Below are positions 1 to 7,434 of a DNA stretch of 8,682 nucleotides, piece after piece. The notes under the pieces are model-generated. The model ran no database searches. It had not been told where the DNA came from and saw nothing but the letters and a program-made list of their open reading frames with translations. Source of the DNA: a virus. Lineage: Duplodnaviria; Heunggongvirae; Uroviricota; Caudoviricetes. Made by a program: the position numbers and the translations under genes. Location of the stretch: the IMG/VR virus record IMGVR_UViG_2734482774_000009; one strand, written 5' to 3'. The first letter of the stretch is position 1, and each line of letters begins with the position of its first letter.

Positions 1-153
1 ATGGCAAAGCCGATCATCACGCTCAATGGCCTAAAAATCGTCATTATGTTGGGAATGCTGGTCATTATTCTCTGCGGTATCCGTTTTGCCGCCGAGATCA
101 TCGTGCCGTTTATTCTCGCATTATTTATTGCTGTTATATATAACTTATTTTGA
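1..153 (+). pseudogene. tqsA: 5' fragment (50 codons) of an inner-membrane transporter gene, TqsA (AI-2 exporter)-like N-terminus; frame diverges after about codon 46 and stops at 151-153
   Basis: Hand translation: [45 protein letters not shown] then IYNLF-stop. Strongly hydrophobic, TM-helix-like. Identity to TqsA/YdgG is recalled, not searched. Sequence becomes AT-rich and non-coding immediately after, consistent with an insertion junction near 138-150. Confidence 0.45.
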
Positions 154-635
154 ATAACATACTGATTTAATTATATTTTCAATTAAGCCCGAAGTGCAAA
201 AAAACTCAAAATAACTACACCAGTGACTACACCGTTCGGCGCACTGTATGAAACAACGTGGAACAAATAGGCACAAGAAATATAAAGGCGGGTAATTTTA
301 AGGGGGCGTTGCTGTCGATATGGGGATTCCCATATCGGGAACCCTACCGGAATTTTTTTCCGGTTAACAGTTAATCAGGCTGGTGGGCTTTACCTGTTCG
401 GTAGGTGTTATGATTATCGTAATACCTTTCCCTCAATGGGGTAAAAGCATCAACCGTAACGAAAGTCGTTATGGTTGCCGCCGATACCCCAAATTTGGGT
501 ATCACGAGTAAGCCCCAAAATCTGGGTGTTGCTCTTACTACCCAAACTACGGGTAGTTTCCGTAATTTCATGGTCGAGTTGCAGATCTGCAACTCCCCCA
601 TCAACCACAGGCGAATTTCCGCCTTCGGTCATTCC

Positions 636-718
636 TTAATCATCTGCGTAATCATAATGATTATTCAGCCAGCGCAATTTTGCGCTTTGCTTTAAGTTCA
701 ACCAGTTACCGCCAGCTT
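636..718. repeat. Direct repeat copy 1 (about 85 bp) containing palindrome AGCGCAA-TT-TTGCGCT
   Basis: ccttaatcatctgcgtaatcataatgattattcagccagcgcaattttgcgctttgcttta... recurs at 757-848 with about 85% identity and a 10-bp indel. Confidence 0.6.
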
Positions 719-756
719 CCCCCAATGGGGGATTGTGGAATAATCAACGGTTTAGG

Positions 757-848
757 CCTTAATCATCTGCGTAAACATAAGTAATCATAATGATCATTCA
801 GCCAGCGCAATTTTGAGCTTTGCTTTAATCTCAGTGAGTTACCGCCGC
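757..848. repeat. Direct repeat copy 2 (about 92 bp), abutting the 3' end of the 89-aa minus-strand gene
   Basis: ccttaatcatctgcgtaaacataagtaatcataatgatcattcagccagcgcaattttgagctttgctttaatc... aligns to 636-718. Confidence 0.6.
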
Positions 849-1363: not shown

Positions 1364-1906
1364 TTACTTGCCTTTCTTCTGTAGCAACTTTTCCGGTACG
1401 TTTCCGGTTGTTTCTTTCAAGTAATCAGCCAGTATCTGTGGGAGGTTGTCGGCAACTCTGGCACTGGCATTACAGGCTTTAACCACTTCCCTTTTAAGCC
1501 TGTCCAGCATGGCGGGGGTAATCTGTGGGAAGCTCCTTTGCATAGTAAGCGGGAGGCTGTCCATGATTGATGAAATCTGACTCGCCAGCTTTGAAAGCGC
1601 GTACAGGCAAAACTCAGTATCAATCACGTCACCGCGATCGCGCTCGTTTTTAAGTTCCTGCGCCTCCGCCTGTGCTGTCAGTAATCTGATCCTGACTCGT
1701 AAGAGTTCATCATCATCAATATCGCCTTTGTCGTTTGTAAGCTGGCTAATTGCATTGTTAACCCTATTGTCTATCACGCTGGCAACATCATAAAACGCCT
1801 CACGGCCTTTACGTTCAACGGGAGTCACTCCCCACTTGTCGAACGCTGTCGCACTTACACGGCAGCTTTTCGCCATGTTTTTTTTGTTCATCAGATGAGA
1901 TTTCAT
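1364..1906 (-). CDS. Terminase small subunit, lambda Nu1-like (180 aa)
   Basis: C-terminal two-thirds aligns closely by eye to lambda Nu1 (LTAQAEAQELKNERDRGDVIDTEFCLYALSKLASQISSIMDSLPLTMQRSFP versus lambda LTRAQADAQELKNARDSAEVVETAFCTFVLSRIAGEIASILDGLPLSVQRRFP); N-terminal HTH-like region is more diverged. Start ambiguous among ATGs at 1906, 1891 and 1876 (no strong Shine-Dalgarno for any); the MNKK start at 1891 aligns best with Nu1 MEVNKK. Confidence 0.85.
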   Translation of the reverse strand: MKSHLMNKKNMAKSCRVSATAFDKWGVTPVERKGREAFYDVASVIDNRVNNAISQLTNDKGDIDDDELLRVRIRLLTAQAEAQELKNERDRGDVIDTEFCLYALSKLASQISSIMDSLPLTMQRSFPQITPAMLDRLKREVVKACNASARVADNLPQILADYLKETTGNVPEKLLQKKGK

Positions 1907-2885: not shown

Positions 2886-3941
2886 TTAACCAATTTTGAC
2901 GGTAACAAATTTGCGAATATCTGCCGGTACCGGCTGCGGTGCACTGTGTGTCTGCACGTACTCAATCGCCGGATCGCCGTCCTCAATCCAGTTTTTCGGG
3001 TAAAACATGTTTTGTGTTGCGCCCGTTCTTACCGCTTCCTGATCCATTATCGCACCATAGGCCACCAGCCCTTTATTGTTGGTGTTGCCCAGAACCAGCA
3101 AATCAGGCTCAAGGAAATATTTTTCTGTGCCGTCGCTGTCAGCGTATTTGCCGGAATAGACGATAAGGGCAATATCGCCCAGATAGCCTTTAAAGCTCAC
3201 CACTTCGCCCAGGTTTTTACAGGCCAGTTCTGCGGCGGATTCTGAACCACGGGAAAGATCGTACAGCTCACGGAATTTTTTAAAGCTGCGTAACGTGCGC
3301 CATACCTCAGCGCCCATAATCATGACGTTTGCGGGGCAACCAGCCTGATCAGCATAAAGCTCGATGTCATAGATTGGGTCGTGCATCTCTTTATCCTGCT
3401 CGGACCATTTTTTACCCTTGCCCTGCTCTATGATGCAGTTTTCCGGTATTTTCCAGTCTATTTCATAGCGTTCTATGCCTTCGCCCTCAATAATGTTTTT
3501 TCCGGTCGTTATCGCATTCACCGCCAGCCATTCCACGCGCGCTTTAATGGCGTTTACCTGGCGGCGCATGTTGCCAGTAATCAGGCGCATACGTCGGTAG
3601 GTAGGGTCGTTAAGCTGTGCCGGATCTTCTCCAGCCATGCGCATGATGGTTTTTGTTGGATCGATTTCGTGCTTTGGCTTCATGTAGCCAGGTTTAATCG
3701 TGCTGGTTTCGTATCCTTTATCGCGCTGTACCTGGCTGCCAACCATAGGCGAACAAAACGCCGACATGGTGACTTCTTCAATGTCCAGGGTATCCAGCAT
3801 GATGTTTTGGGTGCTGAATGTCGCCACGTTCGGGAAAAACAGCGTGGTAAACAGCGGACTGAATTTAAATTCCGCAATATCCCCGCGATTCAGGTACGCA
3901 AAAAGCTGGTTAGTGTTAAGTGCCGTTGCTTTGCCTGCCAT
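2886..3941 (-). CDS. Major capsid protein, lambda gpE family (351 aa)
   Basis: Blocks matching lambda gpE as recalled: FKF(S/D)PLF, PGY(M/V)KPKHE(I/V), DP(T/A)YRR(M/R)R(L/I)I, VLGNT, YPKNW; similar length (lambda E is 341 aa). TAATG overlap with the upstream 68-aa gene; GGGGGTGA Shine-Dalgarno. Confidence 0.9.
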   Translation of the reverse strand: MAGKATALNTNQLFAYLNRGDIAEFKFSPLFTTLFFPNVATFSTQNIMLDTLDIEEVTMSAFCSPMVGSQVQRDKGYETSTIKPGYMKPKHEIDPTKTIMRMAGEDPAQLNDPTYRRMRLITGNMRRQVNAIKARVEWLAVNAITTGKNIIEGEGIERYEIDWKIPENCIIEQGKGKKWSEQDKEMHDPIYDIELYADQAGCPANVMIMGAEVWRTLRSFKKFRELYDLSRGSESAAELACKNLGEVVSFKGYLGDIALIVYSGKYADSDGTEKYFLEPDLLVLGNTNNKGLVAYGAIMDQEAVRTGATQNMFYPKNWIEDGDPAIEYVQTHSAPQPVPADIRKFVTVKIG

Positions 3942-4384: not shown

Positions 4385-4795
4385 TCAGAACGGAATATCA
4401 TCACCGTAGGGGTCATCGTCTCCCGCTGGTGGCTGATTACCCTGTGCGCCTGTGGTTTTGCGTCTGTTCCCGCCAGGACGTGCCGCACGGGCACTGATTA
4501 CGCTGTCTGCAATAACCTGATAACCCTGCCGCGTTTCCCCGTTCTGTCCGGTCCACTGGCTTATCTGCATCACGCCAGATATGCTGGCAACGTCGCCTTT
4601 TTGATGTTTAGCCAGGAAGTCGGCCTGCTTACCAAATGCCATCACCGATAGCCATAACGTAGCCGTTCCGTCATCTGCCTGGCTGCACGGAAGGGGGACC
4701 GCCATACGCGCCAGCGTCATCGGTGTGCCCTTGCTGGTCTGTTTTACCTGCGGGTCGTCCACCAGCCGCCCGTAAGCGGCTATCTGTGCTGTCAT
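4385..4795 (-). CDS. ssb: Single-stranded DNA-binding protein (short SSB, 136 aa)
   Basis: C-terminal acidic tail DDDPYGDDIPF (E. coli SSB ends DDDIPF); OB-fold-like N-terminal region; Gly/Pro-rich linker. GGAGAGGTGG Shine-Dalgarno; ATGA overlap with the upstream gene. Confidence 0.85.
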   Translation of the reverse strand: MTAQIAAYGRLVDDPQVKQTSKGTPMTLARMAVPLPCSQADDGTATLWLSVMAFGKQADFLAKHQKGDVASISGVMQISQWTGQNGETRQGYQVIADSVISARAARPGGNRRKTTGAQGNQPPAGDDDPYGDDIPF

Positions 4796-5106: not shown

Positions 5107-5153
5107 TTATTTTCACCCCCTCGTTTAAAAAGTTTTTAGTTGTGCCTCCCCCC

Positions 5154-5382
5154 CTCTACCCATCTACCCGAATGCTCATCATGTCAGTAATGGCGCGGCT
5201 TTCAGCGGGTAGATAGCTTTTTGAGCTCCTCTACCTGCCGTCTACCCTGCTACCTGAAACTGATAAAATCAGGTAGAAGAGGTAGAGAGCTTTTATTAGC
5301 CTTCTACCTGGCCCTCTACCCACTTATCATGTTGAATAATATGTATTTATTTCATTCAGGTAGATGGGGTAGAGGGCTTTTA
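5154..5382. repeat. Putative replication origin: iteron array plus AT-rich segment
   Basis: At least 11 copies of the hexamer core TCTACC / GGTAGA in both orientations within about 225 bp, where about 4 would be expected by chance in the whole window. Three extended copies GGTAGA-nnGCTTTT at about 5208, 5281 and 5368. AT-rich stretch at 5326-5357. Lies immediately downstream of the primase stop (5390). Confidence 0.65.
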
Positions 5383-5389
5383 CAAAAAA

Positions 5390-7138
5390 TTATAAAAACG
5401 CGTCGCAATCGTCTGTTGTAATTGCGTTGGTCTGCGTTACTCCCTTAACTTTTCGCGTAATATATTCATGCCCGTAAACTTTCGCCGCTGGCTTCATGGC
5501 CTTGCTGAACTCAGCCACGTTTAGCGGTTTGCTCCTGCCTGCGTATGCCATAAACGCCAGATAGACGCGGTAAAGGCTGTTCCTGGTCGTGTACTTCACT
5601 GAATCACCACCGCCACCCATCATCAGGCCGCGCGCTTCCTCCAGAAAATTCAGGAACTGGCAAAACTCAATAACCGGATCCGTCTGTTGCTTTATTGCCA
5701 GTGCTTCATCACCGTCACGCTGTTCCAGTAGTAAAGCCCTCGCCTTTTCAGGGTCGGTAAAGTTCGCCAGCAAGCGGCGGATAATAACGGGGATTTCAGC
5801 CGCAATTTTTTCCGGTAGTTCCCTGTCTTTTTCGGCCTCACTAACAATATTGTCGAAACGGAAAATCACGCGACGACGTGCCACACCTCCGGCCCGTTCG
5901 GTGAATATCATCGGGTTATTATTGGTCGCCAGCACCACCGCCCTGATTACCGCCGTGAAACGCTTTTCATATTTCGGGTTTATTTCCACGGGGTCGCCGC
6001 CCGTGATTTTCTTGATGCCCGTTCCTTCGCCTGTATATTTCGGCTGGTCTGCCAGGACGATAAGACGACTCCCGACAACCTGCGCACGTCCACCAGCATC
6101 ATCAAGCGATGTCATTTCAGCGCTTACCGTGTTCTGTTTCCCTGCCAGAAGGCTGGCTATGTGTGTGAATGTACTTTTACCGCTCCCGCCGTCTCCGGTG
6201 GCCTCAATAAACATCTGCCAGTCGTACCGGTTCGCCATAATCATGTACAGCGCGGCACATATACGCATCATCTTGCGCGGGTCTTTTCCGGCTGCGTGAT
6301 CAAGCCATTTATGAAAGTTTGGCGCGTTGTCGCGGATATTCTCCCCTGGTGCTGGTGGCGTGTATTCAATGCCGTTGTGCGTGGTGATCCAGTTCTCCGG
6401 CGTGTGCGGGGAAAATTCCCCTGTTTTCAGGTCAAGCGCACCATTGGCGAACGGCAACAAATCGCCGGACGGCTCGCCCATTGGTTCGGCAATAACTTTT
6501 AATGCTTCCACGGCGTTATTGATTACGCGCTTGCTGAAAGTGGCCCTGTGCTCTGAATAGATCGCCACCATTTCGCGGCTAAGTTCCATTGTGCTGACCG
6601 GACACCATACCCCGCCGCGCCATACGTGAACGATTTCACTTTCCGGATGCACACAAACGCCATCAAATCGACCAGCAAGCATCTGTGCGCGCTCACTGTC
6701 TGCCATTTGTGCCAGTTGCGTATTTTTCTGCTCCGGCATGGTAAGCCCTGCGGCAATATTTTCACGCTCAGCATTCAGATAGCGCCGCCAGTTTTCACAC
6801 TTCTGGACGTGCATTCCTTCGTGGTAAAAATTTGCGTCCTGAATATCTGCCGCCGCCAGCTTCTGACCAATCTTTTTGGTCTCCACTAAATCCAGTTCTC
6901 CGGCCTGGTACAGCCTTACGCGCTTTTTCCCATCCGGAACAATTTTCAGCGCATCAAGTTCGGCAAGCTGCTTTGGCCCAAGCCACACAGGCGGCACATT
7001 ATCGCCGGATGCGGGGCCATCCTGCTCCTGCCATTGTTTCGCGTGCGACCAGGCATCACTACCCGCAAAGATAATTACCTCTGTGTCTTTGTGTTTTATT
7101 CCGCGTGGCTGTTTTTTTACGTTCGGTGCCAGTTTCAT
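5390..7138 (-). CDS. Replication initiator: P4-type primase/helicase (582 aa)
   Basis: Walker A ATGDGGSGKSTF and Walker-B-like LIVLADQ in the C-terminal half, with an N-terminal primase-like region, as in P4 alpha / PICI Pri-Rep-type proteins (recalled). AGGGG Shine-Dalgarno; ATGA overlap with the upstream 99-aa gene. Confidence 0.85.
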   Translation of the reverse strand: MKLAPNVKKQPRGIKHKDTEVIIFAGSDAWSHAKQWQEQDGPASGDNVPPVWLGPKQLAELDALKIVPDGKKRVRLYQAGELDLVETKKIGQKLAAADIQDANFYHEGMHVQKCENWRRYLNAERENIAAGLTMPEQKNTQLAQMADSERAQMLAGRFDGVCVHPESEIVHVWRGGVWCPVSTMELSREMVAIYSEHRATFSKRVINNAVEALKVIAEPMGEPSGDLLPFANGALDLKTGEFSPHTPENWITTHNGIEYTPPAPGENIRDNAPNFHKWLDHAAGKDPRKMMRICAALYMIMANRYDWQMFIEATGDGGSGKSTFTHIASLLAGKQNTVSAEMTSLDDAGGRAQVVGSRLIVLADQPKYTGEGTGIKKITGGDPVEINPKYEKRFTAVIRAVVLATNNNPMIFTERAGGVARRRVIFRFDNIVSEAEKDRELPEKIAAEIPVIIRRLLANFTDPEKARALLLEQRDGDEALAIKQQTDPVIEFCQFLNFLEEARGLMMGGGGDSVKYTTRNSLYRVYLAFMAYAGRSKPLNVAEFSKAMKPAAKVYGHEYITRKVKGVTQTNAITTDDCDAFL

Positions 7139-7434
7139 TTTTTACCCCTGAATCCGTTAATCATGGTTTTCAGCTTCTGGATGTTTGCCCGTGCCCTGGC
7201 GTTGCTGGTGGGCACGTTATGCGGCGCGGTCTGTACCAGAGAAAAATCACGCCGGAACTGATAAACAGGCATCACGCAATCATATTCGTAACCTTCACGG
7301 CGGTAAGTTACGCACCGTCCCGCCACGCCCTTAATCATTACCGTGCCGCCGTACTGGTCGCGGTAAATATCACCGCGCGTAAATTTTGGGTGAGTGTTGC
7401 CACTGGCAGTTAAGCCAGAATATTTAAGTTTCAT
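7135..7434 (-). CDS. Hypothetical 99-aa protein, translationally coupled to the primase
   Basis: ATG 7434 with GGAGA upstream; stop overlaps the primase ATG. Confidence 0.55.
   Translation of the reverse strand: MKLKYSGLTASGNTHPKFTRGDIYRDQYGGTVMIKGVAGRCVTYRREGYEYDCVMPVYQFRRDFSLVQTAPHNVPTSNARARANIQKLKTMINGFRGKK

Follow-up and report, generated by a model that had tools for sequence, protein, structure and literature searches.

The subject of this report is the left end, some 700 bp long, of an 8,682-nucleotide stretch of viral DNA (IMG/VR record IMGVR_UViG_2734482774_000009; the whole stretch is hereafter called the window), which a preliminary description had singled out as structured non-coding DNA between a truncated host gene and the first gene of a mobile element. 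Judged by its sequence, the element is a phage satellite of the phage-inducible chromosomal island (PICI) type, about 10.9 kb long and inserted in the tqsA gene of Escherichia coli at codon ~45. We consider it probable, if only modestly so, that bases 138-848 constitute the untranslated, integrase-distal end of this satellite, namely an attachment (att) arm followed by a structured 3' untranslated tail of the satellite's operon. With this, the finding is largely explained: the overall kind of the element is known, and current understanding is not overturned.

Comparison of the two junctions with each other and with empty sites allows the left border to be placed to the base. Bases 1-137 (plus strand) are the interrupted 5' end of tqsA, which encodes an autoinducer 2 (AI-2) transporter according to the Prokaryotic Genome Annotation Pipeline (PGAP) annotation of the identical locus, and the last nine of them form a crossover identity block (TGCTGTTAT, 129-137) that recurs at the other junction (28914-28922 in the relative L001). 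Using the joined left and right flanks as a query, we found the uninterrupted tqsA site in 5170 of 5426 complete E. coli genomes. Since the uninterrupted site lacks the region, bases 138-848 are element DNA and not host intergenic DNA; the suggestion that the left stretch is the junction of an integrated element is thus borne out, and the reservation attached to it, that this might be ordinary host DNA present at empty sites, does not apply. For annotation purposes, this means that the left border of the tqsA-inserted satellite is now set to the base and that the 700 bp next to it are satellite DNA without a gene. An identical copy in strain 2015C-3905 shows the element in its entirety: it is 10.9 kb long, its integrase end abuts the 3' part of tqsA, and its far end carries a tyrosine integrase together with a helix-turn-helix/AlpA-type regulator, so that the region under study lies at the end opposite the integrase. 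All element genes are on the minus strand, in what is a single long operon, and the last of them (839-1108, 89 aa, phrog_1561, PHROG E = 4e-49, function unknown; its true start was fixed by alignment) ends inside the region. For this last protein, the AlphaFold model is unusable (predicted local distance difference test score, pLDDT, of 52), and no relative of solved structure was found by sequence. Finally, a satellite that is 97.6% identical over the tail region sits in caiT of O104:H21 strains (L002, NZ_CP009106.2), where the crossover core ATGTTTTTAT (13994-14003 and about 25133-25142) resembles the one at tqsA, ATGCTGTTAT; caiT is a secondary attachment site.

The first part of the region, 138-290, carries a tandemly doubled motif, ACTACACC-agtg-ACTACACC (214-233), followed by GAAACAA (250-256) and GGAACAA (260-266). 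The doubled ACTACACC and the GAAACAA/GGAACAA motifs are found in the same orientation in the integrase-proximal arm as well (at 28766-28785 in L001, and likewise in L002 and in L005, an excised circular relative described below). On the tail side, the doubled motif starts at 214, that is, 81 bp from the core centre at 133; on the integrase side it ends, in L001, at 28785, which is 133 bp from the core centre at 28918, and this distance is 132-133 bp across copies. The geometry is identical in the tqsA and caiT copies. Helper-embedded PICIs have been described to carry a doubled 8-mer, TGTATTGC, at 81 +/- 2 and 132 +/- 2 bp from the centre of attP, for which binding by the integrase's arm domains or by AlpA was suggested and which was said not to have been found in other PICIs (PMC10111431). 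When compared with the attP of that group (tgTGTATTGCantgTGTATTGCa), the present element is alike in having two co-oriented, tandemly doubled 8-mers at about 81 and 132 bp on opposite sides of the attP centre; it differs in that the 8-mer is ACTACACC and not TGTATTGC, in that the core motif of helper-embedded PICIs is lacking, and in its targets, which are tqsA and caiT instead of prophage late genes. Because the geometry is the same as that of the helper-embedded arms and the sequence is another, we read 138-~290 as the integrase-distal arm derived from attP. The ACTACACC and GAACAA repeats would accordingly be candidate arm-type sites for the tyrosine integrase and/or an AlpA-type excision factor, and the doubled arm-motif architecture appears to extend to another integrase specificity, that of ACTACACC, tqsA and caiT. 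The preliminary idea that the 700 bp might hold an att arm therefore stands for about 138-290, where the doubled motif and the GAACAA repeats recur in both arms, and fails for the remainder.

The remainder, bases ~290-848, would be the 3' untranslated tail of the minus-strand operon, composed of short modules that have been shuffled by recombination and tandem duplication. One such module is the direct repeat noted from the outset, which is real and lies at 634-713 and 757-846. In copy 2 the last gene has its genuine 3' end, with the stop codon at 841-839, an operon-end hairpin at 804-819 and a palindrome at 782-796; copy 1 carries a pseudo gene end (GGCGGTAAC, minus strand 713-705), the previously noticed 16-bp palindrome AGCGCAATTTTGCGCT (671-686), from which the operon-end hairpin of copy 2 differs by one mismatch, and the 15-bp palindrome TAATCATAATGATTA (649-663). 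The two copies are 89-96% identical, with a 10-nt insertion in copy 2, and the spacer between them holds a further hairpin (TCCCCCAATGGGGGA, 718-732, read off the sequence, with homologous units in relatives); on the minus strand, a degenerate third 'TAA..TGA' unit comes before this hairpin. In nearly all relatives, a small hairpin with an A/T loop lies about 20 nt past the stop codon. At this one position we observed at least nine different stems, with 93% of alignment cells paired and three of six pairs showing compensatory changes, and the covariation score exceeded that of all 500 shuffles. The relatives in question are close ones: when species-representative genomes were scanned for the last gene, one Shigella locus alone came up, and a protein search listed only close Escherichia/Shigella relatives, so that distant satellites could not be used for covariation. 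The unit consisting of the last codons, the stop, the hairpin and the 15-bp palindrome is repeated zero to three extra times downstream of the gene, and copies of the gene-end motif number 47, as against 2.5 in shuffles. In other words, the 85-bp direct repeat is the product of a tandem duplication of the operon-end unit. As a conserved end structure, which the repeat had been suspected to be, it does not hold up, the copy number among relatives ranging from a partial single copy to three extra ones.

What is more, the last gene together with 600-950 bp devoid of cargo genes terminates three types of satellite: the one in the window (type 1), the capsid-forming PICIs (cf-PICIs) found beside phoQ in O157:H7 and in tqsA (type 2), and satellites with a ClpP-capsid fusion and DUF1441 (type 3), which include an excised 10.79-kb circle and a copy within a prophage terminase gene. 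We compared 75 distinct tails and found the same blocks in different combinations; the three satellite families share a modular, recombining non-coding tail. A search of 50,697 phage genomes with bases 138-1170, at blastn sensitivity, gave zero matches, and thus the tail was not copied from any phage in that collection. Several records touch on these relatives. The L005 record (NZ_CP148328.1, 10,790 bp), deposited as a non-mobilizable plasmid, is an excised circular satellite that runs from int to the last gene to attP. A 32.6-kb 'plasmid' record (L006, CP088587.1) is a chromosomal fragment (clcB-mlc-mdtJI-tqsA) with a cf-PICI in it. Finally, the related satellite L004 (NZ_OW968288.1, 5677-7445) lies inside the large-terminase (gpA) gene of a lambdoid prophage, which makes it one of the helper-embedded PICIs that PMC10111431 describes; in its tail, just one partial repeat unit is present, and the conserved core to which we turn below comes directly after it.

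Structurally, the tail is dense in inverted repeats, and the features in the preliminary description are all present, with slightly shifted coordinates. Hairpin 1, CGATATGGG-gatt-CCCATATCG, lies at 316-337 and hairpin 2, ACCGGAA-ttttt-TTCCGGT, at 346-364. Both had been called perfect, which is true of the window variant only: most relatives have a hairpin 1 with imperfect pairing or with half of it deleted, and a bulge in hairpin 2. Across 33 variants of 316-364, it is the T run (7-8 T) and the CCGG arms that are retained, with the outer stem of hairpin 1 often missing. The three CCCAAA inverted repeats could be located at 483-503, 508-538 and 539-557, with centres at 493, 520 and 547 and thus a spacing of exactly 27 bp. 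They belong to a run of abutting palindromes and hairpins at 451-629 (451-477, 483-503, 508-538, 539-557, 576-595 and 604-629), of which the hairpins at 451-477 and 604-629 and the perfect 20-bp palindrome GAGTTGCAGATCTGCAACTC at 576-595 had escaped earlier notice. Predicted folding agrees with this picture. For 430-640, the fold z-score is -8.0 on the minus and -8.1 on the plus strand, with none of 200 shuffles as stable; the two strands give -2.75 and -4.5 for 290-440 and -2.6 and -2.2 for 634-848, as compared to -0.6 for the adjacent coding gene. Sliding-window z-scores were obtained with a weaker shuffle and are therefore conservative. Tails of unrelated sequence are likewise rich in hairpins. 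A scan of bases 1-1500 against Rfam 15, with E up to 5, yielded nothing credible, the best scores within 150-848 being far below threshold (manA, 18.2 against 55.2; TMV_UPD-PK1, 19.7 against 33).

Within the tail, the stretch 513-597, which comprises repeats of the TACCC-N7-GGGTA type at the 27-bp spacing and the 20-bp palindrome, is nearly invariant. Its 37 unique variants, embedded in unrelated flanks, differ at just 11 sites. The block 505-600, which mostly lacks an annotation, is present in 661 of 5426 E. coli genomes (12%), with an identity of at least 95% in 619 of these. Where the adjoining gene has 70-80% identity, that of the core is about 94%, and there is no correlation between the two (r = 0.09). 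It occurs independently of the replicon's iterons, the integrase arm motif and the cos/packaging type, and the O157 cf-PICI beside phoQ has the last gene without the core. The 20-bp palindrome is, moreover, identical to a segment of prophage KilA-N genes, where it encodes ELQICNS (protein P0009; contig L097, 5503-5523). In three short metagenome contigs (L160-L162), rusA is followed by a truncated KilA-N gene that is fused to the core at this very palindrome, and in the predicted proteins P0007, P0008 and P0011, portions of the tail are joined to PerC or to the last gene. The identity with KilA-N could reflect ascertainment, a patch of recombination or a hint of a binding site. A KilA-N origin of the palindrome was considered, but the plus-strand open reading frame (ORF) has no KilA-N Pfam match and the rest of the domain, by eye, seems to be absent, so that the link is no more than a lead. 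As a separate observation, the viral contig L116 contains, within 9680-9990 and 10083-10914, two cores separated by arm-like repeats, GCGGGTTAT, three in each orientation, with the second core cut by an IS5 insertion; the arrangement suggests tandem satellites with a different integrase specificity.

Is the tail transcribed? In the commonest arrangement among relatives, the core lies between the stop codon and a terminator with an 11-bp stem in the orientation of the operon, with no promoter-like site in between, and there it should consequently be transcribed as a 3' untranslated region (UTR). Terminator-like sites were found in 45-59% of tails per strand, as against 18% in shuffles. Attempts to assign a strand from G-U versus A-C mismatches gave contradictory results, and the small RNA that the preliminary description had raised as a possibility has neither an Rfam family nor a strand-specific signal to its credit.

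A role in packaging or in replication, both of which had been entertained for the region, can be assigned to other parts of the window. No cosN was found within 150-848. The cos site lies at 1142-1217 on the plus strand, matching that of phage 21, with an exact cosN (GGGCGGCGACCT, 1173-1184); this lambda/phage-21-type cosN sits between the terminase gene and the last gene and sets the polarity of the packaged DNA. A second, inverted cos at 2007-2082 (cosN about 2038-2051) forms with it a 76-nt inverted repeat (88%) flanking the gene for a Nu1-like small terminase subunit, terS (1364-1906, minus strand). The conserved block is found also in satellites with other packaging systems and, with cos elsewhere and the core independent of cos type, we rejected a packaging role for the tail. 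The origin of replication (ori) of Gram-negative PICIs adjoins the pri gene and bears iterons (PMC6092414). At 5150-5385, just 3' of the primase gene, the window has an AT-rich stretch surrounded by at least 12 TCTACC(C/T) iterons, which occur in both orientations. Other replicons that share the core have iterons TGTTCACC (P4-like; L005, 5550-5780) or CTCACTT (L001, 22960-23150). Because the iterons differ among satellites and the core remains constant, a replication role is rejected, and with it a role like that of P4 crr, the repeats and the core being free of ori iterons.

A further feature of the tail is a Chi site. The most conserved stretch of the module that we label block B is an invariant 23-mer, TTAATCAGGCTGGTGGGCTTTAC (371-393, plus strand), which is kept in all block-B variants regardless of reading frame. 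Within it, at 379-386, lies the Chi octamer GCTGGTGG, of which 31 of 33 variants have an exact copy. The window has seven Chi sites (379-386, 3062-3069, 4425-4432, 4759-4766, 6090-6097, 6351-6358 and 7204-7211; four on the plus and three on the minus strand), where 0.30 would be expected and none of 200 shuffles reached seven. The density is 0.74-1.0 per kb in six satellites of the three types, compared with 0.13-0.29 in flanking host DNA; the loci scanned apart from the window were L001, L002, L003, L005 and L006. RecBCD, upon entering a double-strand end, reads Chi from its 3' side. Since cosB lies to the right of cosN, the nearest mature DNA end should be to the right of the Chi site, about 790 bp away, and the site at 379-386 would thus be oriented for recognition by RecBCD entering from that cos end.

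Taken together, we propose that the hairpins of the tail would protect or terminate the operon transcript and insulate it from transcription across att. In the excised circular relative of 10.79 kb, where all genes are unidirectional, the tail region lies upstream of int; transcription across att would reach int in such a circular form, and in the integrated form the host promoter or flanking genes. The Chi site at 379-386 may, along with the six others of the element, serve to tame RecBCD, and the palindrome core would be a part of the transcribed tail with an additional role beyond structure. Several points weigh against this interpretation. The window has no terminator-like site on the operon (minus) strand, the sole one (671-686, followed by TTGCTTT) being on the plus strand, and the window has only a degenerate form, upstream of the core, of the strong hairpin with which tails of the common arrangement close. 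Hairpin detection was used to set the register of the covariation alignment, and this biases it towards structure. In the palindrome at 483-503, two stem changes affect one side only and are uncompensated. What is more, hairpins alone leave the sequence-level conservation of the core unexplained; the core is conserved in sequence beyond what structure would demand, which implies a further role. Finally, the Chi sites are split symmetrically between the strands and, for this reason, the orientation argument for 379-386 is weak on its own.

What, then, might the core be doing? One answer, which we regard as improbable, is that the block 483-597 is a landing pad in the DNA itself, with evenly spaced inverted repeats and the 20-bp palindrome bound by a dimeric protein of the host, the helper phage or the satellite, for instance to sense the helper or to organise DNA near attP. 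It would account well for the exact 27-bp spacing and for the half-sites being kept while the 7-nt spacers vary (CAAATTT, TTTATTT, AAAATAT, TGTATTT), as well as for one-sided half-site changes being tolerated without compensation, which points to conservation of sequence and not just of pairing; orientation and sequence of the block are, in addition, constant, although terminators lie on opposite strands in the two main arrangements. That said, we identified no protein as a candidate binder, the block occurs irrespective of replicon type, integrase arm motif and packaging system, and its absence from the O157 cf-PICI makes it dispensable for the core life cycle. The identical 18-21-nt palindrome inside prophage genes for DNA-binding KilA-N proteins would fit a bound site too, but these matches come from an exact-word search of 2.9 million contigs, in which ascertainment bias is possible. 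The extreme predicted stability on both strands (z about -8), on the other hand, would suit a regulatory RNA, be it a small RNA (sRNA) processed from the 3' UTR on the minus strand or a plus-strand RNA of ~270 nt running from a possible extended -10 element (TGtTATGAT, 406-414) to the terminator at 671-693. The common arrangement places the block between the stop codon and a strong terminator, the window has a plus-strand terminator-like site downstream of the block, and the block, which 12% of E. coli genomes carry without annotation, exceeds the neighbouring coding DNA in conservation. We nonetheless find this unlikely, given that no Rfam family matches with E up to 5, that the tails of relatives yielded no sigma-70-like promoter call and the other block-B variants do not share the extended -10, that the variation in the core (11 sites) is too small to show covariation, that the G-U and A-C asymmetries contradict each other, and that the RNA strand would have to differ between the two arrangements.

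Alternatively, everything beyond the att arm could be without a function of its own, that is, the debris of lost accessory genes and duplicated gene ends, homogenised by recombination, with the core merely a patch of homology through which modules are exchanged. In favour of this, blocks begin and end where the core does, the identity of the core does not follow how far the neighbouring gene has diverged, and natural fusions join the core or block B to the truncated KilA-N gene, PerC and the last gene; moreover, one copy has taken up an IS5 insertion, the repeat number varies, and some satellites do without the core. Decay would be expected of such DNA, yet 619 of the 661 genomes with the core have it at 95% identity or above, the operon-end hairpin has held its position through at least nine sequence replacements with compensatory changes, Chi is kept in 31 of 33 variants, and even tails of unrelated sequence are hairpin-rich. 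We hence consider it doubtful. Very unlikely, in our opinion, is the encoding of one or more small proteins, and the preliminary verdict of no convincing coding sequence is confirmed. The candidate here is the ORF at 371-604 on the minus strand (77 aa), which is related to a hydrophobic family, MVIMTTQTIKAT..IVTVGAF.PL, that recurs in relatives at 34-45 aa; a type I toxin paired with an antisense RNA is conceivable. In many variants no stop interrupts the minus frame where blocks meet, the family's first 25 residues are found repeatedly, the 27-nt period of the DNA corresponds to a 9-residue peptide repeat, and databases do hold some predicted proteins of this frame. However, the small ORFs of the region have no Pfam or PHROG match, and a search of 5.8 billion predicted proteins with ORF 371-604(-) returned 11 near-identical matches only, several of them fusion artefacts, and no distant homologues. 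PGAP calls a 52-aa ORF on the minus strand here and an 83-aa ORF on the plus strand in the O157 relative. Among 31 core variants, synonymous and non-synonymous substitutions stand at 5:5 and 4:5 in the two open minus frames, the former ratio being that of ORF 371-604(-); none of the six frames showed a synonymous excess in a codon-position test, for which there were too few variable sites, and the C-terminal part of the window ORF differs from that of the O157 relative by about seven non-synonymous changes to one synonymous, as counted by eye. The C-termini are frameshifted over the invariant DNA 23-mer. What would be the start of the protein is, in fact, the 15-bp palindrome, which shows compensatory changes (TGGTCAT.ATGACCA versus TAATCAT.ATGATTA) and is retained in repeat copies that have no ORF, and a usable Shine-Dalgarno sequence is absent. 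As for a type I toxin-antitoxin system, an open frame and a terminator-like site on the plus strand are seen, with no synonymous excess, homologues or conserved promoter.

Accepting the untranslated att arm and operon tail as the most plausible account of 138-848, we would rank the possible functions of the core, in decreasing order of belief, as a transcribed structural or regulatory element of the 3' UTR, a protein-binding array, a functionless recombination patch and a small protein. A broader proposal, which we put forward tentatively and would not bet on, is that the block 483-597 is a functional cis element or regulatory RNA common to the three satellite families, either a landing pad for a DNA-binding protein of the helper phage or host or an sRNA derived from the 3' UTR, and that, together with Chi, it is part of an undescribed 'arrival and establishment' kit. 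If true, such a kit would sit at that end of the satellite DNA which, if lambda is a guide, is the first to enter a new cell.

How does the element as a whole compare with known systems? It has an end-located tyrosine integrase, a specific att site with a short identity block at both junctions, an AlpA-type regulator, a primase followed by an ori with two iteron sets around an AT-rich stretch, unidirectional genes and, at 10.9 kb, a size within the range of about 10-15 kb, all of which are features of PICIs. Its proteins include the Nu1-like small terminase, a lambda D-type decoration protein, a lambda E-type major capsid protein, a single-stranded DNA-binding protein, a D5/DUF5906-type primase and a DUF4222 protein. 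Induction, packaging and transfer by a helper phage may occur, the indirect pointers being the lambda/21-type cosN and the circular record of the 10.79-kb relative. With PICIs of the EcCICFT073 type and with cf-PICIs (EcCIEDL933), it shares a length of about 11 kb, a unidirectional layout, one end of which holds int and an AlpA-type regulator, an iteron-bearing ori behind the primase gene, and genes for capsid and the small terminase subunit. EcCICFT073 also has two lambda-type cos copies, which in the present element are inverted around the satellite's own terS. Relative to known PICIs, the element is peculiar in pairing a lambda E/D-type capsid module with its own Nu1-like small subunit, and relative to the O157 cf-PICI beside phoQ, which has the same last gene and tail, in possessing the conserved core.

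Three further comparisons concern the tail itself. In lambda, a structured site, sib, likewise lies across attP from int, in such a way that its linkage to int depends on the integrated or circular state, and an analogy with sib/int retroregulation may be drawn to this extent. However, sib is downstream of int and acts via RNase III on read-through int mRNA, whereas the present tail is upstream of int in the circle and no long duplex of the RNase III type was identified in it. The crr of P4 is a cis-acting replication region with two 120-bp direct repeats carrying iterons for the alpha protein near att and int; the two direct repeats of about 85 bp near att and the P4-alpha-like primase are reminiscent of it, but here neither the repeats nor the core contain the ori iterons (TCTACCC). 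As for the protection of linear or rolling-circle DNA from RecBCD by Chi, which is established for E. coli, with Chi enrichment known in mobile elements without a RecBCD inhibitor, the about four-fold density over host DNA and the site at 379-386 facing the nearest cos end are in keeping with it, whereas an element-wide orientation bias is absent here. In the literature searched, we came across no account of PICIs being enriched in Chi, and the published descriptions of PICIs and cf-PICIs that we consulted make no mention of a non-coding tail, a palindrome block or Chi content. The copies that we examined are without an annotated RecBCD inhibitor, and their four-fold enrichment in Chi may protect these satellites. 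In this sense, both the highly conserved palindrome block and the Chi enrichment provide leads for satellite biology.

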